Origin: a virus
DNA length: 64,000 bases
Reading direction: 5' to 3' (one strand)
Virus record (IMG/VR): IMGVR_UViG_3300045988_144754
Positions 2,698-57,389 of the stretch are shown here, one piece after another. The position numbers were made by a program, and so were the translations under genes. The notes beneath the pieces are model-generated. The model was given only the letters and a program-made list of their open reading frames with translations, searched no databases and was not told the origin of the DNA. Position 1 is the first letter of the stretch. Each line of letters begins with the position of its first letter.

Positions 2698-3750
2698 TCA
2701 AAGTAAAAGCGAACCATTAATATCGATCACTACTTTAAACGACAAAGCATACATGTTGGTGTTGGTGTCATCCTGGATAGTGGTCTCGTCTTCCAAAAGA
2801 ATGGTGCATGGAATCCAAATGCCGTGCGATAGAATCCATGCGTGTTCGCTCATGGCAAACTCGTGCAGATACCAGTCGAGCCAACTCTCGTCGAGCGGGT
2901 CAGTAGTGAGATTCCAAGTTTCCTGATCATTCTGCTTCTTGACCGACGCACGAGAGAAGGAGTTAAAAGTCTCCTGCTTTGCCACAATATACGATTCTGT
3001 TGTAAGCGCCATCTTACGGCTGTAGGATTTCGGCAGACTGACACTCTCAAGTACACCAAACAGATTGATGAAGCGTATGGTGTAACGGTTGCTCGCCTCT
3101 GTAGCAGGAAGCGCATAGAGTTGGTGAGTACCGACGGTCTGCAGTCCTTCCTGCGTAATCTCCTTAGAGACAGACGTGGGAGGAACCAGGGTCGGACTGT
3201 TACTGAGCAGTTGTTCCGTCTCGTAGGGTGTAGTATAAATAAAGGTGTCACCCACAACGACGGGTTGCGGCAAAGTGTTCGGCTTTCGGGTGAAAGAAAT
3301 GACTCCCTTACTGGGTCCAGACTGAAGGCGCACCATATCAGAGAAAGCACCCGCAATGCAGCGAAGGTTCGTGTTGCCGGTTTCGTCGGGCTCTTGAGGA
3401 TAAAACACCTCGCCTACATTGGTAAATATCTCACCATTGTTATCCATATATTCATCGTAGGCATGGACGTACCAGCTCACGAAAGGATAGGTTGTCGGCT
3501 CGGGAGTATATTTATAGGAGTCGAGTGCCGCACGCAAAGCTGACGATACATCAAGCGATACATCAGTGCCCTCTTTGGTGACGGGTTCATTGAGTTTTAT
3601 GACATCATAGCTGCCGTCATTGTCGAACACGACCTCTACGACGACACGATGAAAAGAAGGCGTATTCTCAAAAGCTGACGGAGAGATGGTAAAAGTAATC
3701 GGGTTGCCAGCAAGGATTGAACCAGATGTAAGTAAAATTTTCTGTGCCAT
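2698..3750 (-). CDS. hypothetical tail-associated protein
   Basis: 350-aa ORF between the ACP gene and the tail-fibre gene, same strand, compact spacing. Confidence 0.45.
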   Translation of the reverse strand: MAQKILLTSGSILAGNPITFTISPSAFENTPSFHRVVVEVVFDNDGSYDVIKLNEPVTKEGTDVSLDVSSALRAALDSYKYTPEPTTYPFVSWYVHAYDEYMDNNGEIFTNVGEVFYPQEPDETGNTNLRCIAGAFSDMVRLQSGPSKGVISFTRKPNTLPQPVVVGDTFIYTTPYETEQLLSNSPTLVPPTSVSKEITQEGLQTVGTHQLYALPATEASNRYTIRFINLFGVLESVSLPKSYSRKMALTTESYIVAKQETFNSFSRASVKKQNDQETWNLTTDPLDESWLDWYLHEFAMSEHAWILSHGIWIPCTILLEDETTIQDDTNTNMYALSFKVVIDINGSLLL

Positions 3751-5302: not shown

Positions 5303-8116
5303 TTACAAGGCATAGACGGTCAGTTCTACCTCTCCAATGCCTTCCTTGGCCGTGATAGTTGTATTCACCTTGTCGATAAGACATTTCACACCTCCGATGT
5401 TCCACCACGTCTTCCAGTGGTTAGGTATGTCGGCTATCTGTGCGACAGAAGCCGAACAGCGGATGATGTACTTCTTGCGGTTAAGCAGGAAATAGGCGTA
5501 GGGCAGAATGAAGGTATCGAAAAGACCGCGTGAGCGTATCTTGGTTATCACATTGCCGTTAGTGTCCACCTCGTCGGGGGCGCAGAGTGAAACATCCTTA
5601 TATTCAGGCTTACTGAGCCATGACGGCTCTTTGAAAGCACGTATCTTGAGCGAGAAACGTTCACCTTTGCCTCTGCCTTCCTGAATACCATTATAGTCGA
5701 AGACATTGCCCATCATGTCAATAGAGTCGCAAGCAAGAGCATATTCGCCTGCTGCCGTGCGCCACTTGGAAGTACCGAAGTGGTCGTAGTTATAGTCATA
5801 GGGCTCTGTAGTTGCATTCGTACCGCCGCCTCGCATCATGGCCAAGGCAAAGCCCCATCGTGAATCGTCTTGAAGAGGCGAGTTGCCGTCTTCGGTGTTT
5901 GACGGGTCGTAACTTTCGACGAGTTTCAGAGACTGCTGCATGTAGAAATCGCAGAAAGGCGAGGAGATGGTCTGGTTGATGATTTGCTCGACAAACTCAT
6001 GCTCCATGTCCTCATCGACATAGGCGCAGAGGATAGGCTGTCCTTCCTTGATAACGACACCATAGGTTGTTGTCTTTGAATCGTCATAGTACTTTGCCGT
6101 ATGAGAGCCGTAAGCAGCCTCTATCTCCTTGAAATAGTTGACATCATTGAACGGCACGGGGGTGAAGTCGATGGTGATGTCGTGGATGAAGTCTTCATTC
6201 TCCTCGCTGCAATCGCCATACTCCACACCCTTGTACTGGCCTACCTCGAAAAGTACAGGTTTGAGGTCGGCTGTAGTAGTGGCGTCGCCATTCACCTTCA
6301 CGCGATAGGCATTGCCCGTCTTCGGGTCGATGTAGCATCTTTTATCGCCAGAACTTAAATTATGAAAGAAGTCAACGTAATCTCGATCGTAAACCGTTTC
6401 GTTGTCTCCACTTCCCGGTTCGGGATAGTCGATATAGTCGTAGTCGGTAGCATAGCCCATATTTTTATTCTTGCGGCTGTCCTTGACGTTCTGCTGCTGA
6501 TCCTTGGCATCGCTCTCTTCGGAGTATCGCATACGTACACCCGTTATCTTCTCGCTGACGGGAATGATAGAATGAATGTCTGCGCGGAACGTGAGTGCTG
6601 GCTGTCCACTCTCGCGAAGCACGTCACGGATGAGGTAGGCCGTGACTTTCTTTTGCTCATAGTCGTAGGAGAACTTGATGCCAAAGGCGCTCTCCAAAGA
6701 TGAGATAATCGTGCTGACACTCTCATCAGGAAAGTTGTCGCTGTTGGCCACCATATAGAGCACGTTGGCCTGCACGTTGAACTTAGAGATTTGCGCCTCG
6801 ATGCTGATACCTGTCACCTTGCCGCCCTCTTTTGTCGTCTCTCCCACCTGTATGTGTTCGGAAGTTCCTTCGTTAGTGGTAAGGGTGAGCTCGTTGACCG
6901 TCTTGTCCTCTGCCTTTACGATGTTGATTTTTCCACCACAACCGCGCGACTCCAACCAGGAGTTGATATGATCTTGCTTCTTGAAATAACCTTCCTTAAT
7001 CTCGCCTTCCTTCTTTTTCTTGGCGATGACTTCGGGGTCGTCCTTCTTGTAGTATGTTCCGTGATGTGGATGCTCTTTGGTATCGTAGGCGCAAACGGTG
7101 GTGAAGAAACAGAGGTGCTTCATATCCTCTATCTGCATCAGTGCCGACTTGTCGAAGGTGACACCCAAGTGAGCAAACAGGCAGTCGAGAAAATAGAGTA
7201 CATAGAAACAAATGCCCGACTGCGGACGGCGTGCGTCCAACACCCAATAGGGATAAAGATCTTCGTTAGTCCACTTGCAATCCTTTGTGCTGATAATGTC
7301 GCTCGATGTGGTGCCATCGTCTGCCAGTCCGTGGTGCTTGTAGCAGATACGGGCATTGCAATAGGCTGCGGGACGGCCTGCGCCATCAGTCTCGCCATAG
7401 GCTGCCGATGTGTTGATATAGTCGCCATTCTTGGCGATGGCGGGCTCGTTGACTGTATTGCCGTTGGGGTAGGATCGTGACGACTTTCTCTTGGCATCGG
7501 CCTTCATGTGTAAAGGAGAAAGAATGTTGGTGGTGTACTCCTGGCACGATGCAGGATAGGAGAAGCCAAGAGCCTGCGGTTCGAGCACTTTACTCACGCT
7601 TACGTGCTCGGCATGAATGGTTCGGGTGACAGTCTCATCATCCTTATGCTTACCTCCCTCCACGAATACACTGACATTTACAACAGGGTCGCTCTCGATG
7701 TCTACCCTTACATTGCCTATCTTCTCGCCGATGATCAATTCATCCTTGATGGGGATGTCACGGCAGTTTAGCGAACCGATGAGGTCGCTGAAACTCTGTC
7801 TGCCTGCATTAATACTCATAGAGAGCGAGTCTTTTATCTCTTCAGCATCCTGCATGACGAGCGTACCGTTGCGGAAGGGCAGTCCGTCGGCATGAATGCG
7901 CGTAGGCAAATGCTCCATGTTGACAGCACGAAACGATGCCCGCACGTCATCGATGTTCTTTACCAGCCATCGGTTGCCGTCGAGCGGAATGGAAAACGGA
8001 TAGGCGAACATCTCGTTGTCATTGAACACAGGGTTCTGGTCCTCTATATCGATAGAGAAATCATCGGGCAGCGACACGGGGCGGTCGTTGATAAGTATGG
8101 TGAGATGTGAGTTCAT
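5303..8116 (-). CDS. large virion structural protein (tail or baseplate candidate)
   Basis: 937-aa ORF in the structural operon upstream of the ACP/KAS pair. No recognisable motif. Confidence 0.45.
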   Translation of the reverse strand: MNSHLTILINDRPVSLPDDFSIDIEDQNPVFNDNEMFAYPFSIPLDGNRWLVKNIDDVRASFRAVNMEHLPTRIHADGLPFRNGTLVMQDAEEIKDSLSMSINAGRQSFSDLIGSLNCRDIPIKDELIIGEKIGNVRVDIESDPVVNVSVFVEGGKHKDDETVTRTIHAEHVSVSKVLEPQALGFSYPASCQEYTTNILSPLHMKADAKRKSSRSYPNGNTVNEPAIAKNGDYINTSAAYGETDGAGRPAAYCNARICYKHHGLADDGTTSSDIISTKDCKWTNEDLYPYWVLDARRPQSGICFYVLYFLDCLFAHLGVTFDKSALMQIEDMKHLCFFTTVCAYDTKEHPHHGTYYKKDDPEVIAKKKKEGEIKEGYFKKQDHINSWLESRGCGGKINIVKAEDKTVNELTLTTNEGTSEHIQVGETTKEGGKVTGISIEAQISKFNVQANVLYMVANSDNFPDESVSTIISSLESAFGIKFSYDYEQKKVTAYLIRDVLRESGQPALTFRADIHSIIPVSEKITGVRMRYSEESDAKDQQQNVKDSRKNKNMGYATDYDYIDYPEPGSGDNETVYDRDYVDFFHNLSSGDKRCYIDPKTGNAYRVKVNGDATTTADLKPVLFEVGQYKGVEYGDCSEENEDFIHDITIDFTPVPFNDVNYFKEIEAAYGSHTAKYYDDSKTTTYGVVIKEGQPILCAYVDEDMEHEFVEQIINQTISSPFCDFYMQQSLKLVESYDPSNTEDGNSPLQDDSRWGFALAMMRGGGTNATTEPYDYNYDHFGTSKWRTAAGEYALACDSIDMMGNVFDYNGIQEGRGKGERFSLKIRAFKEPSWLSKPEYKDVSLCAPDEVDTNGNVITKIRSRGLFDTFILPYAYFLLNRKKYIIRCSASVAQIADIPNHWKTWWNIGGVKCLIDKVNTTITAKEGIGEVELTVYAL

Positions 8117-48968: not shown

Positions 48969-49619
48969 TCACTCATCGGCAGGAAAACTGACCTTTGCCT
49001 CTGCCATTCTGATCTTGCAGATCACACCAAGGCCTTCAATGACACCCAGGAATGAGCTACATTCATGACAGAGCTTAAAACCTACAACAGGACGGTCTTG
49101 TTCATAACCGCAGGACGATTCTTTTTTCATGTAGAGTTTTTTGTCCTCCACTAAGTAGTGAAATTCTTTTACAATCCTCTTCAGCTTCACATTTTCCAAT
49201 TCCAGTTCATTGCAATGGTCGCGCATCTGCTGCATCTCTTCCTGCGTCTGCTTCGACGGCGCTTCCACTTGTGGCGCATCCTTACTGCTCAACTGGTGAA
49301 CTACGTCATTGTAGTCGGCCGTGAGTTGATGCACGCGCTGCTCAAGTTCTCCGTTCTTTCTTTCCAGTTCGTCGCAATGATCACGCATCTTCAGCATCTC
49401 GCCAAGCGTCTGCTTTGACGAGTCTTCATCCTTGCGCTTCTCCAGTCCGTGCTGTTGGCGCACGGCTTCGTTGTAGTCATCCGTGAGCTGATGCACGCGC
49501 TGCGTCATCTCAATGTTCTCTGCCTTCAGGTCGGCTACGATATAGGAAAGAGCCAACATGCGTTTGTTTTCTTCTGTTGTCATTGTTTCTTGGGTTTTAT
49601 GTTTGTTACTCATATTCAT
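48969..49619 (-). CDS. coiled-coil protein with an internal ~50-aa repeat and a Cys-containing C-terminus
   Basis: ELERKNGELEQRVHQLTADYNDVVHQL is repeated at the protein and nucleotide level. Confidence 0.4.
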   Translation of the reverse strand: MNMSNKHKTQETMTTEENKRMLALSYIVADLKAENIEMTQRVHQLTDDYNEAVRQQHGLEKRKDEDSSKQTLGEMLKMRDHCDELERKNGELEQRVHQLTADYNDVVHQLSSKDAPQVEAPSKQTQEEMQQMRDHCNELELENVKLKRIVKEFHYLVEDKKLYMKKESSCGYEQDRPVVGFKLCHECSSFLGVIEGLGVICKIRMAEAKVSFPADE

Positions 49620-49779
49620 ATACTATATGCGGTGTGGTATTGCCCAGTCCGTCGCGAGGATCAGTAACACCCCCCGACCATTGAGGTTACGGCATGGGCT
49701 ATCAGCTTGCGCGGTCGGCTCTTTACGAGGCCCTTGCCGTCCTTGCCGCTGCGTACCCATCCGATGTAATACTTGTCAG
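49607..49779. repeat. direct repeat R1 (~175 bp, about 88% identical to 51678..51843)
   Basis: Shared sequence actatatgcggtgtggtattgcccagtccgtcgcgagg...ccgatgtaatacttgtca. Carries a small ORF. Confidence 0.7.
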
Positions 49780-49783
49780 TCAT
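49661..49783 (-). CDS. small repeat-borne ORF (MTDKYYIGWVRSGKDGKGLVK...)
   Basis: 39-aa ORF inside repeat R1. Its paralog at 51668..51846 differs mostly at synonymous or conservative positions. Confidence 0.35.
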   Translation of the reverse strand: MTDKYYIGWVRSGKDGKGLVKSRPRKLIAHAVTSMVGGCY

Positions 49784-50588: not shown

Positions 50589-50641
50589 TATGTTTCTATT
50601 TTAAATTATTACTCATATTCTATCTTGTGATGTTATTCATA

Positions 50642-50932
50642 TTACCCTTTTTCTACTAATTCCCATGTCTTTTCATCGTGAGAGGAATAGACGGTATAGG
50701 TAAGTTCACAACAGTTCTTGGCTGTCCTCACTTCATGCAACATTTCTCTCGTATAGAAGCAACGCTCCATAAGGTACGCCAATGCCTTAAACTGGTCTTG
50801 AGTAAGAAAGACCTCCTGGTCGCCACAAGTGATGCCTACGTTGTCAGTAATGGTAGAATAGAAGATCTTTACGTCCTCTTCCTTTCCTGTGTCCTCGTTC
50901 TTTACGATTATCTTTTCTGTATTAAAACTCAT
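50642..50932 (-). CDS. hypothetical protein
   Basis: 96-aa ORF. Confidence 0.35.
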   Translation of the reverse strand: MSFNTEKIIVKNEDTGKEEDVKIFYSTITDNVGITCGDQEVFLTQDQFKALAYLMERCFYTREMLHEVRTAKNCCELTYTVYSSHDEKTWELVEKG

Positions 50933-50948
50933 TAATTATTTCTCCTTT

Positions 50949-51062
50949 TATTTATAATTCAACAAACACGCAAATTCCACCACTTGCAGCGATCAGTGCG
51001 TTTACAAGCTTACTCCCATCCTCGCCATTCGAGCCGATGGCTAACGGGATGCACGGAAATGT
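50949..51062. repeat. repeat A+B (contiguous copy). A is the 3' end of a paralog of the 55063..55386 ORF, and B is its upstream region.
   Basis: A matches 55059..55122 and B matches 55447..55497. In this copy the ORF body between A and B is missing. Confidence 0.6.
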
Positions 51063-51076
51063 AGATGTGGGTCATG

Positions 51077-51538
51077 TTACTCTTGAAGATACTCGCCGTA
51101 TAGTTTCCACTCCTTATCATGGATGTTGCCGACAACCTCAAAGCTCTTCATCTTCTCTTGCAAGAGATCATCTGGGATGCCGTCTTCAAGACCACCTACG
51201 TCAGAGTAGGGATTTTTTACCGTAACGATACCAAAGCAAGCTTTCTTCTCACAATAATACACTACGGCATAGTAGTCGTCGCAAGTATTGTATTCGATTC
51301 TGCTATACGGATATTCGTTCGATCGCAATACGTCGCCTTCATAAATCTCCTTGCCGTTCTTGTCGGTGAAGCCAGTGAACTGGCATACAGTAGAGGGGTC
51401 AACAGCAAACGTAAAAACAGGCCGTCCATCACTGACTGGATTATTTTTTACGAGAGTTTGGTCACCCACATGGGACAAATCGCCGTAATTCCACTTCCCG
51501 TCCTCTATACTCTTACCCTTAAACTTAATTGTTCTCAT
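51077..51538 (-). CDS. YopX-family protein
   Basis: Start trimmed to MRTIKFKGK. CQFTGFTDKNGKEIYEGDVLRS is the YopX signature. Paralog of 56949..57389. Confidence 0.6.
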   Translation of the reverse strand: MRTIKFKGKSIEDGKWNYGDLSHVGDQTLVKNNPVSDGRPVFTFAVDPSTVCQFTGFTDKNGKEIYEGDVLRSNEYPYSRIEYNTCDDYYAVVYYCEKKACFGIVTVKNPYSDVGGLEDGIPDDLLQEKMKSFEVVGNIHDKEWKLYGEYLQE

Positions 51539-51667
51539 TCTATAAATCCTTTTATATTTAATTAGAAACCAAAGATACAACCTCCGACATATTTCTGAGC
51601 CATATAAACGGTCACAGGGATGCAACCATCATAGGCTTCTTTCGGGATAATTCTCAATTTCATGTCT

Positions 51668-51846
51668 TATTCAAATTTATATACTATATGCGGTGTGGTA
51701 TTGCCCAGTCCGTCGCGAGGGTCGGCAATACCTCTCCCGACCATTGTCGTCACAGCATTGGCTATCAGCTTGCGCGGTCGGTACTTTACGAGGCCCTTGC
51801 CGTCCTTGCCGGAACGTACCCATCCGATGTAATACTTGTCAATCAT
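51668..51846 (-). CDS. small repeat-borne ORF (MIDKYYIGWVRSGKDGKGLVKYRPRK...)
   Basis: 58-aa paralog of 49661..49783 inside repeat R1-prime. Confidence 0.35.
51678..51843. repeat. direct repeat R1-prime
   Basis: See 49607..49779. Confidence 0.7.
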
Positions 51847-52040
51847 ATTCTATCAATACAATGGTGTGCTGTCCGTGCTCGTCGTAGAGTCCTGCCCATC
51901 CGTCGTAGCGTGCGGACAGTGCGGTGGAGTACCCCCGGACGTGGGCAGAGATAGGATGTGCGTTGCACGAAAGGGATTTGTTTAATCATACGTTATCAAT
52001 ACCATGTTGTCTTTGCCAACCGAGGTGAGAGTGTTGGTTG

Positions 52041-52051
52041 TCCCCCCCCCC
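52041..52051. repeat. poly-C homopolymer tract (11 nt)
   Basis: tgtcccccccccccgttt, seen directly. Confidence 0.9.
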
Positions 52052-52137
52052 GTTTATCTCCATTCGCTGACAGAAGCGTCCGTTGGAGGGATGCTTGCGG
52101 TCGGACGGATTGTCGGGGTCACGGCCTCGGAAGGCTG

Positions 52138-52635
52138 CTATGCGAAAGTGTAGCATAGGAGGTTGTCTTTTGTTACTGTTGTTATCGAATTGCTCCACGC
52201 CCACGGACTTGGGCGGTGATACTTGTCGCTGTATTTGCACCCTCCCCGGTCGCCATGTTCACGACGGAAGGCTTTGGCTTCCTCGGTGCGGTAGTGGACG
52301 AGGACGGAACGATTAATCATACTCTATCAATATTTTCGGTTTATCCACGTCGTGACCTTTACCTCCCCCGGCTATGCACAAGGCTATGCCGCGCGGCGAC
52401 ACGATGATGCCGTTCTGCGAGGGGCTGTAGGAGCCGAGGATGATGGGGCGAGGGTTGTTATTCATATATTACAATTACGCCAGTGGCTTTGAAATTTGCT
52501 CCTTGGGTTGAAACGTCAAGAACATCGTATGCACCCTTCTTGAAATAATTGGCTTTGATAGTGCGTGATGTGCCATCGGATTCGGTGTTGAAAGGGAATG
52601 TCATAATTCTACTGCTACAAAGAACACGTCGCTGC
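52138..52635 (-). pseudogene. frameshifted fragments of a C5-cytosine methyltransferase C-terminal half (TRD, motifs IX and X)
   Basis: Three overlapping short ORFs in three frames. They carry SRTIKANYFKKGAYDVL (compare RTLTARYHKDGSEILI), SPRGIALCIAGGGKG (compare M.HhaI GISITLSAYGGG), and a degenerate TEEAKAFR...WSNSITTV (motifs IX and X). Confidence 0.45.
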
Positions 52636-52779
52636 AATCGGTGCGCGACATGATAGTTATTGCTATACCGTGAAATGCTCCGTTGAAGCGTTCTGCGCTG
52701 AACATCGAGGCAGGGCAGGTGAGCAAACTACCCCCCAATCATATCAGCTATGATACGGATTACACGGTCGGGTGGATTA

Positions 52780-54096
52780 TCAGTTCTCATTCTTCCTCTC
52801 CATATTCTCCTTGAACATTTCTCCGAAACCATCCCAATAATGAGCGTCCATCCATTCGGGCGAGGATAAAAACTGCTCATACATCATTGTCGCAGGTATC
52901 GTCCGTAGGTATTTCTCGCAAGCCTTAACGTCTTTGTCCCACAAATCCATCCGCTCCATTTCTATCTGAAAATACGTCTTGAGGAACATTGCCGCCTCAT
53001 GTGTCGGTGGCAGGTCGAATTGAAGGAATAAGGCATTGTCGGAGTCGTTTGCCTTGAGGAACTTGCTCACGGCATCGTCCTTGAGGAAATAGCGGTCAGA
53101 CACTTCCTCTTCGAGCACGTCTTCCAATCGGGTAAGCAGCTCGAAAGGTTCTGGGAACTGATAGTCGAATGCCACGTCTCGGCGCATGGAGAGGCAGAAA
53201 ACACGGTCGCGGTTTTGTGGCACACCGTAGTTCTTGGCGTTGAGTCGCGTCCAACGGCTCACATAGCCGAGCGACGAGAGTTTGTCGAGCCACTTCTGAA
53301 AGTCTGGCAAGAACTTCTGGCTTACCAGTGCCGCCACGTTCTCCTGCAAGAGATACTTCGGGCGAAGCACCTCCACAGCATCCGCCACACGCCAAAGCAG
53401 TGCGCTTCGGGTGTCGCTGCCCTCCTGCAAGCCCATTTGCTTGCCCGCCTGACTGATGTCCTGGCAAGGCGAGGAATAGGTGAAGAGGTCTACTTCGCGG
53501 CCTTCGAGCGAGCTTTCCACCTCGTGCCAGTCAATCTTGGTGATGTCGCCCAGGGCGCAGTCGGCAAACTGAGGGAAGACGAGGTTGTGCATCTGACAGG
53601 CGTATTTGTCGATGTCGCTCCATCCTATACATGTCCATCGGAAGTCGGGATGCCACTCGCGGAGCACATCGGCTGCCATAAGCTGCGAGTCGTAGCCGGA
53701 GAACGTGGTAAGGAATATCTTCTCCTCGTTCTTGTTGGCTGCGGTGGGCGGCAGGGCGGGTAATGTGTCTTCGAGGTCGTCGAAGAGCGAGAGTTGCTTT
53801 TGCTTACGAGGTTTGGGCGTAGGATAGAAAAGTTGCTCGTAGATGTGGGCCAACACGTCCACCACGATGCTGTTTCCGGCTTGCTTGTACTGCTGTGAGG
53901 CAGATATAGCCATGTCTTCGGGCTTGCCCTTGCCTTTCCAGTCGGGCAGACGTTCGGCTGCTTGAGCATTGCTGCTCTGCATCGTGCCGATTACATTGTC
54001 ACGAACGCCCATCAGACGAAAACACTCCTTGGGTGTGAGCTTGCGGATGGCATAGCTCTTGATGGTGCGGTCGGTGAAATTGAGTTTTGTAATCAT
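52780..54096 (-). CDS. DNA (cytosine-5)-methyltransferase with permuted motif order
   Basis: N-terminus carries motif IX (IRKLTPKECFRLMG) and motif X (QYKQAGNSIVVDVL). Then come motifs I (FSGYDS), IV (SSPCQDIS), VI (LQENVAAL) and VIII (QNRDRVFCL). Confidence 0.65.
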   Translation of the reverse strand: MITKLNFTDRTIKSYAIRKLTPKECFRLMGVRDNVIGTMQSSNAQAAERLPDWKGKGKPEDMAISASQQYKQAGNSIVVDVLAHIYEQLFYPTPKPRKQKQLSLFDDLEDTLPALPPTAANKNEEKIFLTTFSGYDSQLMAADVLREWHPDFRWTCIGWSDIDKYACQMHNLVFPQFADCALGDITKIDWHEVESSLEGREVDLFTYSSPCQDISQAGKQMGLQEGSDTRSALLWRVADAVEVLRPKYLLQENVAALVSQKFLPDFQKWLDKLSSLGYVSRWTRLNAKNYGVPQNRDRVFCLSMRRDVAFDYQFPEPFELLTRLEDVLEEEVSDRYFLKDDAVSKFLKANDSDNALFLQFDLPPTHEAAMFLKTYFQIEMERMDLWDKDVKACEKYLRTIPATMMYEQFLSSPEWMDAHYWDGFGEMFKENMERKNEN

Positions 54097-54267
54097 ATTG
54101 TTGCTGTTATTATTCGTATTCTATTAAAATTCCTGGAGCATGATTATCTGCCTTGACGCATCTATTTATTCCTTCTAACGGAGGTCTTTTATAGTCAGGC
54201 GAAACATTCCAATAAATGCTCGATATTGCATGAGCGTGATAGTCTATTGTGATGTTATTCATATTCT

Positions 54268-54642
54268 TCAATCAAAAGAACGCTTCAGATTGCAAGTCGC
54301 CAATATAACAATAACGCTGCACTTCGTATTCGCTGATAAACATTCGCCAATTCTGTTCGTCATGATCGAAATGTTCATGTACGAAGCATGTACACCGAGT
54401 CGCCAACAGAGAAGCGATCCTATGCAATGCGGTTGTTCTCTGGCTGGATGCCATAACTGAACGATATTACGATATTCGGCTCTTTTATCCGTTTCTACAT
54501 CGTCAGACAAGGAATCCTTAAAACTCACGCCTTTTTTGTCGGAATCGACAAAAACGCAATTATCCGTAGTCTGACTTTCCAACAAGTCGGTAGCATCCCT
54601 TGACATGAGTATCACGTCGGGCAGTCTGTATTCTCTTTTCAT
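54268..54642 (-). pseudogene. frameshifted paralog of 55509..55880
   Basis: The N-terminal 90 aa align with the 55509..55880 protein. The conserved C-terminus (DEQNWRMFISEYEVQRYCYIGDL) is in another frame, at ORF 54272..54454. Confidence 0.4.
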
Positions 54643-55062: not shown

Positions 55063-55386
55063 TTATAATTCAACAAACACGCAGATTCCGCCACTTGCAG
55101 CGGTCAGTGCGTTTACGAGTTTACCCCCACCGACTGTGCGGCTGCGCCTTAGAGCTGAAGACGGATAACTGAGGTCGGCTGCTCCTGGGCATGGGCAGTC
55201 GGTGTAGCCAAGTTCGGTGGCTTGACGTATGCGAAGAAACGTTGCGCCGTCTCGGTCCACCAACTGAAGGAACGGTCGGTCGGTGGTGGAGTAGATTCGG
55301 TAGAGCGATCCGTCGGGATAGCGGCCATACAGCTTGCCGTCCTTGCGGATAGTACCGCGCTTGTAGTGAGGATCAATCATATTCAA
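55063..55386 (-). CDS. small hypothetical protein (MIDPHYKRGTIRKDGK...)
   Basis: 107 aa. Its C-terminal coding sequence is repeated as a start-less relic at 50949..51012. Confidence 0.4.
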   Translation of the reverse strand: MNMIDPHYKRGTIRKDGKLYGRYPDGSLYRIYSTTDRPFLQLVDRDGATFLRIRQATELGYTDCPCPGAADLSYPSSALRRSRTVGGGKLVNALTAASGGICVFVEL

Positions 55387-55508
55387 TCATTATACAGTGT
55401 GGGCATTTGTGGTCGGTGGCTCGAAGAGCGGGCGAGAAGTTTTCCCCCCATCCTCGCCATTCAAGCCGATGGCTAATGGGATGCACCGAAATCTTAATGT
55501 CAGTCATA

Positions 55509-55880
55509 TCAAACGAACCATTCGGGTTCCAAATTAGAAATATAGCAATAACGCTTTATGTTGTTAGTGCTGATGAATAAATGCCAATTTTCATCGTCAT
55601 GGCTGTAATGGTTGTGTACGAAAAATTTTCCGTCTTGACACCAACAGAGAAGTTGACCTATGCAATGAGGCTTTTCTGTGGCAGGGGACCACAACGAAAC
55701 GATGTTGCGATACTCGGCTGTAATGTCCATCGTTACACCTTCCGAAGGTTCGTCCTTGAAACTTACACTTTGTCCGTCAGATTCAACGCAGATGCAAGCA
55801 TCCTGGGTTGAGTTTGACATAAAAGTGGATGCTTTATCCGACATTAACAGCACGTCGGGCAGTCGTTTTTCTCTTTTCAT
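55509..55880 (-). CDS. hypothetical protein (intact paralog of 54268..54642)
   Basis: 123 aa. Confidence 0.45.
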   Translation of the reverse strand: MKREKRLPDVLLMSDKASTFMSNSTQDACICVESDGQSVSFKDEPSEGVTMDITAEYRNIVSLWSPATEKPHCIGQLLCWCQDGKFFVHNHYSHDDENWHLFISTNNIKRYCYISNLEPEWFV

Positions 55881-56948: not shown

Positions 56949-57389
56949 CTACCATTCTGGGTCGTGGATGCAGCCGACCAACTCACAGTCCTCAAGTTTC
57001 TGTTGCGTGATTTCGTCAGAGATGCCGTCAGAAATGCCACGCACAGCGGATTTCGGGTTTTTGACACAGGTGAGCAGAAACATCGCCTCTTCATCACTCC
57101 ACTCTATAATGCCGAAGTAATTATCACGCGCATCATCCTCCATGCAACTGAAGGGGTATTCGTCCGAGCGAAGAATATCGCCCTCATAAATCTCCCTACC
57201 GCTCTTGTCGAGGAAGCCGGTGAACTGGCAGACGGTATCAGGGGCAACTTTGTAGGGGATGTTTCTATTCAACATACATTCCTTTTGTCTATCCTCGATA
57301 ATGTAGGTGTTACCATTCTCCTTGTAGAAGAATCCACAAATCCATTCTTGATTATCAAGGCGTTTAGCCTTAAACTTAATTGTTCTCAC
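56949..57389 (-). CDS. YopX-family protein
   Basis: MRTIKFKAKRLDNQEW...CQFTGFLDKSGREIYEGDILRS. Confidence 0.6.
   Translation of the reverse strand: MRTIKFKAKRLDNQEWICGFFYKENGNTYIIEDRQKECMLNRNIPYKVAPDTVCQFTGFLDKSGREIYEGDILRSDEYPFSCMEDDARDNYFGIIEWSDEEAMFLLTCVKNPKSAVRGISDGISDEITQQKLEDCELVGCIHDPEW

Follow-up and report, generated by a model that had tools for sequence, protein, structure and literature searches.

We have analysed a 64,000-nt stretch of the IMG/VR virus record IMGVR_UViG_3300045988_144754 (hereafter the window; all coordinates are positions of the whole stretch, and L and P numbers denote loci and relative proteins, respectively). The window belongs to a tailed phage, with genes for a tape-measure protein, a head protease and tail fibres. 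It encodes a circularly permuted C5-cytosine methyltransferase (52780-54096, the core) that has no target recognition domain (TRD) of its own, and this gene is flanked on both sides by minigenes for short proteins, each related to a single TRD of other methyltransferases. We lean, by a little more than an even chance, towards reading this module as a split multispecific methyltransferase, in which the TRD subunits would act in trans and could be switched individually. The fuller proposal, in which the TRD-less core would be programmed in trans by up to a dozen TRD mini-proteins of 33-105 amino acids (aa) through shared β-strand docking, poly-G switching and swapping at the junctions, HsdS-like and tracking host restriction repertoires, seems to us evenly poised between right and wrong.

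The core runs from an N-terminal β-hairpin (residues 2-15) through motifs IX and X, a linker and motifs I-VIII to a helical tail, with the following elements:

52780..54096, minus strand: catalytic core, 438-aa circularly permuted C5-cytosine methyltransferase without TRD (Pfam, phmmer, alignment, AlphaFold, Foldseek)
54007..54054, minus strand: motif IX region, residues 15-30, YAIRKLTPKECFRLMG, aligned to M.HhaI 271-288 and M.MpeI 333-367
53839..53904, minus strand: motif X region, residues 65-86, SASQQYKQAGNSIVVDVLAHIY, aligned to M.HhaI 294-315
53725..53826, minus strand: Pro/Lys-rich linker, residues 91-124, from the former C-terminus to the former N-terminus (low model confidence, variable alignment)
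53683..53712, minus strand: motif I variant LTTFSGYDSQ, residues 129-138 (sequence, alignment)
53452..53478, minus strand: motif IV YSSPCQDIS with catalytic Cys211 (sequence, phmmer, alignment)
53335..53346, minus strand: motif VI QENV, E252-N253-V254 (sequence, alignment)
53197..53217, minus strand: motif VIII QNRDRVF, with Q294, R296 and R298 (sequence, phmmer, alignment)
52783..53001, minus strand: all-helical C-terminal tail, residues 366-438 (model, alignments, no TRD-profile match)

The interval 52780-54096 is exactly one ATG-to-stop open reading frame (ORF) of 438 codons on the minus strand. Its product matched Pfam PF00145 (170 bits, E 1.2e-49, cut-off 22), with the match falling in two stretches, and no other Pfam family. 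In a phmmer search of PDB sequences the best overall match was M.MpeI (4dkj/8c56). Against M.HhaI, motif IX was recognised in residues 17-34 (M.HhaI 271-288) and motif X in residues 65-86 (M.HhaI 294-315), and residues 156-331 matched M.HhaI 35-199, a stretch that includes the motifs as far as VIII and continues past it. Motifs IX and X therefore truly lie ahead of I-VIII. An earlier interpretation made without database searches (the sequence-only reading) had proposed this order, and it is borne out: the N-terminal segment is motif IX/X, and each of the peptides then quoted (IRKLTPKECFRLMG, QYKQAGNSIVVDVL, FSGYDS, PCQ, ENV and QNRDRVF) was found in the core. The comparisons confirm the predicted protein as a real member of the C5-cytosine methyltransferase family with the order IX-X-linker-I-VIII.

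The catalytic fold, which the sequence-only reading had left to structure prediction, does form in the AlphaFold2 model (mean predicted local distance difference test, pLDDT, 85.6; predicted template-modelling score 0.81), where the catalytic domain is normal and the β-hairpin of residues 2-15 lies ahead of motif IX. Foldseek placed M.MpeI 4dkj, M.HhaI and M.HaeIII at the top (E ~1e-15 to 1e-13), the program being dependent on sequence order, so that the permuted IX-X segment and the small domain fall outside its scoring. The N-terminus of the core lies 14 residues before motif IX and its C-terminus after motif VIII; motif X thus precedes motif I in one polypeptide, and the permutation point is inside the VIII-IX variable region. 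This is the M.BssHII type of circular permutation, as had been suggested, and is also that of M.Alw26I, M2.Eco31I, M.Esp3I and M2.BsaI.

Across 27 permuted relatives, P210-C211-Q212, E252-N253-V254, Q294/R296/R298 and G74-N75-S76 are invariant; their alignment also gives R18, K19, E24, R27, L28 and M29 as invariant in the motif IX region and G74, N75, S76 and I77 in the motif X region. Motif I, FSGYDSQ, departs from the SAM-binding consensus FxGxG in that Asp replaces the second Gly; the strand-helix there is modelled confidently. This motif had been flagged as atypical, rightly so, and it is a family-wide variant that is conserved in the normal-order relatives P0278 and P0296 as well. A sequencing error splitting the ORF had also been considered; the ORF is whole. 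The core occurs at full length in more than 120 protein clusters (86-97% identity, mostly on ~100-kb contigs labelled Caudoviricetes or Prevotella), and it is intact in 73 of 82 loci, window included (the 82 are the window, L001 and 80 IMG/VR loci). Because the same full-length architecture recurs so widely, the core ORF is not an assembly artefact.

Motif X is joined to motif I by the Pro/Lys-rich linker, modelled with low confidence (pLDDT <50 at residues 104-110). An origin of the core by fusion of tandem methyltransferase copies, raised by the sequence-only reading, stays plausible. Such a fusion, if it happened, was ancient, because permuted relatives at only 41-46% identity have the same linker.

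The absence of a TRD from this protein deserves special attention. About 140 residues do follow motif VIII, as the sequence-only reading had stated, but its assignment of them to a TRD is not supported by sequence or model. In the AlphaFold2 structure the catalytic domain is followed by a single strand (355-359) and then by a five-helix bundle (366-432), and the TRD profiles of the 18 minigene families described below gave no match to window-type cores. Since the tail is helical, no TRD profile matches and the TRDs of fused relatives precede motif IX, the core has no TRD of its own. The long tail is absent from more distant permuted relatives, according to an exhaustive HMMER search and alignment. 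Its centre, ~70 residues between the conserved flanks FDLPPTHEAAMFLKT and FKENMERKK (52822-52974, minus strand; core residues ~375-425), is hypervariable and mosaic between phage strains, with at least five unrelated allele types among the 82 loci; the window allele, counted from the sequence, is net acidic. This segment could be a docking platform, or a target or decoy for host defence.

It is thus unlikely, in our view, that the enzyme is self-contained, with its specificity in the C-terminal ~140 aa (order IX-X-I-VIII-TRD) and the flanking ORFs accessory or unrelated. The region after motif VIII is the TRD site of a 'Type J' permutant, its central ~70 aa vary between strains as specificity domains often do, two loci (L058 and L061) have the core without nearby cassettes, and isolated TRDs failed to complement engineered cores. 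An acidic all-helical tail is, however, unlike the TRD small domains of solved C5-cytosine methyltransferases and matches neither a TRD profile nor any other Pfam family; in the fused relatives the TRDs precede motif IX and the long tail is absent; and purifying selection on 18 families of TRD homologues beside the core would be left unexplained.

In the window we have identified 11 TRD cassettes with verified coordinates, which lie to either side of the core, as well as a remnant and an 'empty' junction. Seven are intact (X4, C2, C7, X2, C1, C3 and C6) and four frameshifted (X1, C8, C5 and a second C6). In the lines below a slash marks the frame break:

55373..55507, minus strand: X4, 44 aa, ...ENFSPALRATDHKCPHCIMIEYD, intact; G6 tract at 55444-55449 (plus-strand positions)
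55063..55380, minus strand: C2, 105 aa, ends VFVEL, intact
54110..54262, minus strand: C7, 50 aa, ends ILIEYE and then a double stop, intact; adjoins the core ATG upstream, in another frame
52601..52742, minus strand: X1, MIGG/SLLTCPASMF...VAVEL, frameshifted at G6 tract 52731-52736 (G8 and intact in L002, a locus 99% identical)
52458..52604, minus strand: X2, 48 aa, ...SRTIKANYFKKG...VIVIYE, intact
52313..52465, minus strand: C1, 50 aa, ...RGIALCIAGGGKGHDVDKPKILIEYD, intact
52138..52320, minus strand: C3, 60 aa, ...RTEEAKAFRREHGD...NSITTVTKDNLL..., intact
51982..52156, minus strand: C8, MLHFRIAAFRGRDPDNPSDR.../...TTNTLTSVGKDNMVLITYD, frameshifted at G10 tract 52042-52051 (intact as 57 aa at other loci)
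51839..51989, minus strand: C5, MIKQIPFVQRTSYLCPRPG/YSTALSARYDGWAGLYDEHGQHTIVLIEYD, frameshifted at G5 tract 51932-51936 (intact in L001 and L002)
51667..51846, minus strand: C6, 59 aa, ...LIANAVTTMVGRG...HIVYKFE, intact
50955..51075, minus strand: deletion remnant, X4 head joined to C2 tail, MTHIYISVHPVSHRLEWRGWE, stop, ...KLVNALIAASGGICVFVEL, stop (repeats D2 and D4)
50606..50643, minus strand: 'empty' junction, C7-type head ATGAATAACATCACA abutting tail motif GATAGAATATGA (repeats D6 and D13)
49609..49783, minus strand: second C6-type minigene, frameshifted at G6 tract 49670-49675

Across the 82 loci these minigenes form at least 18 families of 33-105 aa. They are short ORFs flanking the core on the same strand, with a T-[LVI]-[TKS] motif and a conserved, strand-like C-terminus of the form xIEY[DE] or V[FA]VEL, and public databases label their products only as 'hypothetical protein'. 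C8 is 62% identical (E 8e-9) to one TRD of a 528-aa methyltransferase of Dulem virus 39 (XCD07457), an enzyme of normal motif order in which ~5 TRDs stand in tandem between motifs VIII and IX. In P0296, also of normal order, residues 258-310 align with C3, and the pair C1 and C3 is collinear with the leading two of the fused TRDs in P0271. Of the 18 families, 13 gave profiles that match full-length methyltransferases, and all 296 classifiable profile matches fall in the TRD position, either between VIII and IX or, in permuted enzymes, N-terminal to IX. At the level of sequence, these comparisons show each minigene to be homologous to one TRD of single-chain multi-TRD methyltransferases.

The ratio of non-synonymous to synonymous substitution rates (dN/dS) is 0.08-0.25 in the minigenes' own frame, compared with ~0.3-3.6 (mostly >1) in the other two frames, in 14 of 14 families tested. 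Because the low ratio is confined to their own frame, the substitution pattern shows the minigenes to be translated and under purifying selection. Of the copies counted in the 82 loci, 645 are intact, 120 carry a frameshift and 25 are partial; the median locus has 9 intact ones. Up to 12 cassettes are present in one locus, on both sides of the core and sometimes with unrelated genes between them; core and cassettes are co-localised in 80 of the 82 loci, and 76 different intact repertoires occur among 80 loci.

These data make it very unlikely that the cassettes, be they a reservoir or the decaying remains of an earlier single-chain enzyme of multiple specificity, serve only as recombination donors and are not functional subunits as they stand. 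Frameshifts in ~15% of copies, the remnants and empty junctions, the junction repeats that mediate cassette insertions and deletions, and the existence of hybrid and fused cassettes (P0418 and P0410, respectively) would fit such a reservoir. But the in-frame dN/dS in all 14 families requires selection on a translated product, and the cassettes have kept their start codon and the overlap of stop and start. An 'expression site' in which a TRD is fused to the core is absent from all 82 loci, and even in a lineage whose core shares just 43% identity the layout is still split.

Each TRD is its own ORF, with its own start and stop and in a frame differing from that of its neighbours. At 361 of the 566 scored junctions, the stop codon that ends one cassette shares an 8-nt overlap, ATGAnTRA (...ATA GAA TATG AnT RA...), with the ATG of the following ORF, which is accordingly always read in the +1 frame. 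To judge from this arrangement, which the junction counts show to be the prevailing one, most minigenes are translationally coupled to the next ORF. C7, which adjoins the core, is closed by a double stop, after which come 10 nt and a change of frame; C7 and the core are therefore separate polypeptides. In P0271 the join between TRD units (...YLLE-PSVL...) corresponds to the stop/start junction here (...IEYD-stop/MINRSVL...), and this junction would then be a strand-turn-strand.

A +1 ribosomal frameshift at the stop (...TAT GAT TGA N...), which would join the cassettes into poly-TRD proteins like the P0271/P0272 arrays, is highly improbable. It would agree with the constant +1 position of the next ORF at the conserved junction and with naturally occurring in-frame fusions (P0410, which is C3-C8, and the P0271/P0272 arrays), and a slowly decoded stop in the A site is a classic context for +1 frameshifting (prfB, antizyme). 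Against it, cassettes keep their own ATG at the 361 junctions, the P-site Asp codon, judging by its sequence, could not re-pair in the +1 frame, the cassette adjoining the core ends in two stops before the 10 nt and the frame change, and cassettes downstream of the core could never be joined to motif IX in this way. Reassignment of a stop codon, by which the cassettes could in principle be joined, was rejected, since the frame differs between cassettes and each of the three stop codons is in use.

The junctions are also sites of cassette turnover. Between the window and L002, whose cores are 99% identical, the upstream region is identical except for one 132-nt cassette, X3, flanked on both sides by a perfect 19-nt repeat (TTTTGATTGAAGAATATGA). 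Such comparisons show that the junction sequence of 15-19 nt serves as a direct repeat for the gain or loss of entire cassettes. In-frame fusion (P0410, C3-C8) and hybrid (P0418) cassettes exist as well. The repeats at the junctions are direct rather than inverted, and the cassettes are not flanked by long inverted repeats, which rules out an invertible or shufflon-type switch.

A second source of variation lies within the cassettes. Of 67 cassette frameshift breaks, 60 are at coding-strand G tracts of at least 6 nt, over many unrelated families; these tracts mostly precede TA and encode Gly-Gly(-Gly). Five such tracts were found on coding strands in the whole window, four of them in cassettes. 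Over all loci there are 155 G tracts of this length in 121 kb of cassette sequence versus 74 in 620 kb elsewhere, an enrichment of ~10-fold (p 5e-67). Between loci with identical flanks, tract length varies at 56% of G6-7 sites and 92% of G8+ sites, compared with 6% of A6-7 and 18% of T6-7 control tracts. This pattern, read from the sequences, is the signature of simple-sequence contingency loci; the variation in tract length is evident from the alignments, and it suggests phase variation at a high rate. As a separate observation, unrelated cassette families in many loci share the tract form G(5-10)-T-A (among others GGGGGGGTAC, GGGGGGGGTAA and GGGGGGTATT; e.g. 52042-52051, 52731-52736 and 55444-55449), and this likeness in nucleotides exceeds what the coding of Gly-Gly needs.

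Relatives of the core show both fused and split layouts. TRD-like segments are fused N-terminally, directly before the point at which the window core starts, in P0133 (two), P0271 (three) and P0272 (four), and one each in P0166, P0260 and P0148. P0158, P0149 and P0205 start ('MIAQIN...') at the position matching 'MITKLNF...' of the window core. The arrangement TRD-IX-X-I-VIII is the 'Type H' order of M.BssHII, M.Alw26I, M2.Eco31I, M.Esp3I and M2.BsaI (PMC5944983). L084, from a distinct phage lineage, has a core (P0205) only 43% identical to that of the window and with the same start point, and directly after it are a 64-aa C3-type and a 43-aa C9-type minigene. L063, L064 and L075, more divergent members of the window's clade, carry their own cassette arrays. 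A megablast search of the 4.1-kb module against 50,697 GenBank phage records gave no match; the module therefore has no annotated close relative among those records.

From these data a mechanism may be proposed. The permutation leaves both termini of the core where a TRD would normally attach, and each TRD peptide would dock non-covalently on the core, restoring the small domain. The docking surface would probably be the N-terminal β-hairpin (residues 2-15) together with strand 355-359, with which the xIEY[DE] strand would pair. One core could then methylate as many types of site as there are in-frame TRD genes, and many methylated site types would protect the phage DNA from many host restriction systems. 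Changes in poly-G length would put single TRD genes in or out of frame. In a split array single specificities could be switched or swapped and the enzyme spared, whereas a frameshift in a fused N-terminal array would destroy the enzyme. The TRD library probably lets one enzyme guard phage DNA against many bacterial restriction enzymes.

Several points weigh against such a split enzyme, beginning with the fact that its activity, the formation of its complexes and its specificities are all things that we infer. The core of L058 and L061 (IMGVR_UViG_3300045988_177209 and IMGVR_UViG_3300045988_175279, respectively) is intact, but no recognisable TRD minigene lies within ±4 kb of it, and a scan for cassettes elsewhere with a back-translated C1 pattern returned neither locus. 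In the loci with a nonsense- or frameshift-mutated core, 74 of 82 cassettes are still intact, and a coupled decay of the cassettes, which was looked for in these loci, was not seen. Peptides of 33-60 aa may fail to fold alone. The differences in poly-G length could in part be sequencing or assembly errors. When a fusion of C7 to the core was modelled artificially with AlphaFold, the cassette stayed unmodelled (pLDDT ~25, with no cassette homologues in the alignment), a result that is uninformative either way. Finally, an engineered [IX-X-I-VIII] fragment of M.MpeI or M.SssI combined with the isolated TRD gave no methylation in E. coli (PMC5944983), and a natural system would therefore need an added interface. 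Although the engineered pair, with the topology proposed here, was inactive, the system of the window goes beyond it: its core adds the N-terminal hairpin, strand 355-359 and the helical tail, and its cassettes the conserved xIEY[DE] tails, elements that could supply such an interface.

A core that works independently of TRDs (e.g., with relaxed or very short specificity), the TRD peptides serving as regulators, competitors or blockers of DNA sites, would accord with the intact catalytic motifs, with the core of L058 and L061 having no cassettes nearby and with cassettes staying intact where the core is mutated, but is just as improbable as ribosomal frameshifting, as the near-universal co-localisation (80 of 82 loci) and the terminal strands common to the cassettes and the core N-terminus argue for a physical partnership, and we know of no precedent for free TRD peptides with an independent function.

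The elements of the split enzyme proposed here have known counterparts: permutation, multispecificity and a multi-subunit make-up are each already known for C5-cytosine methyltransferases, and the permuted order flagged by the sequence-only reading is not new in itself. Natural permuted enzymes (M.BssHII, M.Alw26I, M2.Eco31I, M.Esp3I, M2.BsaI) amount to 27 sequences in REBASE (PMC5944983). Judged by motif order, the window core resembles them in having motif X before motif I and a permutation point in the variable region. They keep the TRD in the chain, however, mostly in the 'Type H' order TRD-IX-X-I-VIII, whereas the window core starts just past the TRD position and is without one.

Multispecific phage C5-cytosine methyltransferases such as M.SPRI, M.Phi3TI and M.Rho11sI have several tandem short TRDs (~40-60 aa) in one chain; they are said to have been treated by Trautner et al. 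in 1996, a paper listed among the references of PMC12707154. The cassettes are homologous to the tandem ~40-60-aa TRDs of multi-TRD enzymes (Dulem virus 39 XCD07457, P0278 and P0296), and the system would share with the SPR/phi3T type several TRDs, presumably each with its own specificity, a single catalytic domain and the need for anti-restriction. In the multispecific enzymes the TRDs lie in frame between motifs VIII and IX of one polypeptide, whereas here they are separate genes. The window system thus stands apart from both the permuted and the multispecific families, all of which have the TRD in the same polypeptide.

M.AquI and M.EcoHK31I (alpha/beta) are C5-cytosine methyltransferases made of separately translated polypeptides from adjacent or overlapping genes (PMC3404938). 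M.AquI has a single split inside the variable region, normal motif order and IX-X on the small subunit, whereas here IX-X is on the large one; in M.EcoHK31I only motif IX is supplied in trans, whereas here the small subunits would be TRD only. The window locus differs from both in its permuted core and, on the proposed reading, in having alternative subunits that consist of a TRD alone. In its way of working, the proposed enzyme would resemble HsdS of Type I systems and phase-variable specificity systems, in which an exchangeable specificity polypeptide directs a common methyltransferase and is varied by recombination and repeat switching. This is an analogy, not homology, as Type I enzymes are N6-adenine methyltransferases of the gamma class with a coiled-coil S subunit and a different fold and stoichiometry. 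No description of TRD-only genes for C5-cytosine methyltransferases, or of an HsdS-like equivalent, was found in the literature searched, which was mostly outside subscription journals. Within that literature the combination of a TRD-less core, a variable library of TRD-only minigenes, a docking-like tail, recombinogenic junctions and poly-G switches would be new.

C5-cytosine methyltransferases are a textbook case of an enzyme with a built-in specificity domain, and to our knowledge the permuted, split and multispecific ones are rare curiosities in which the TRD is always covalently attached to part of the catalytic framework. If the split reading holds, the smallest specificity unit of these enzymes would be a peptide of ~40-60 aa working in trans, in a topology that engineers attempted without success, and programmable tools for cytosine methylation would gain a natural scaffold and a docking tag. 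It would also explain the very large and fast-changing anti-restriction repertoires of some gut phages, nearly every genome having a different cassette set, and would assign a function to hundreds of small 'hypothetical protein' entries in the databases. For annotation, it would be a warning that the gene of a permuted methyltransferase need not encode the whole enzyme.

A number of further observations concern the core and its relatives. The core gene is interrupted in 9 of the 82 loci (L024, L035, L050, L055, L056, L059, L062, L070 and L079). At least five interruptions are in-frame point nonsense changes (CAA>TAA, TGG>TAG, TGG>TGA, TAC>TAA), while those of L062 and L070 are shifts at a C7 run. 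The changes CAA>TAA, TGG>TAG and TGG>TGA represent transitions (C>T or G>A) such as deamination of 5-methylcytosine would produce, a link that is speculative. In L008 an apparent second, partial copy of the core 3' end lies at ~5650-5740, downstream of cassette X2, as suggested by a tblastn match that extends ~420 nt beyond the end of the ORF, together with an ORF on the reverse strand that agrees with it. After this copy, at 5747-5941, comes an ORF for a Cys-rich, zinc-ribbon-like protein of 64 aa, inserted in the cassette array.

P0126 (329 aa) has motifs I-VIII and the same helical tail without the N-terminal IX-X segment; the family may therefore be split in other ways as well, perhaps with IX-X on a gene of its own. 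In L082 (Streptococcus phage Javan179, MK448694) a normal-order C5-cytosine methyltransferase is annotated as two coding sequences in different frames, 573-1364 (motifs I-VIII) and 1465-1851 (TRD with IX-X), which may be a frameshift or a natural M.AquI-like split. L084 encodes a 245-aa FFPC...ENP protein directly upstream of its core, with a 4-nt overlap, and an N6/N4 methyltransferase downstream (2909-3646 and 5524-6246); the 245-aa protein may be another methyltransferase-like protein.

Other genes are localised among or beside the cassettes of the window. After the last cassette, a 33-aa ORF (MKLRIIPKEAYDGCIPVTVYMAQKYVGGCIFGF; ~51560-51661, minus strand, beginning MKLRIIPKEAYDGC...) is identical in L001 and L002 and longer and different in L003. 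It was rejected as a degenerate IX-X remnant: the L003 counterpart runs into an unrelated 56-aa protein, and the likeness to IX-X is superficial. Two paralogous genes of ~123 aa (MKRE[YK]RLPDV...) lie among the TRD cassettes at 54268-54642 and 55509-55880, both on the minus strand; the former is frameshifted in the window, its tail being ORF 54272-54454, and is intact in L001 and L002. The methyltransferase/TRD module is bracketed by paralogues of the YopX family at 51077-51537 and 56949-57389 (both minus strand), and in L001 YopX genes are found at the same relative positions.

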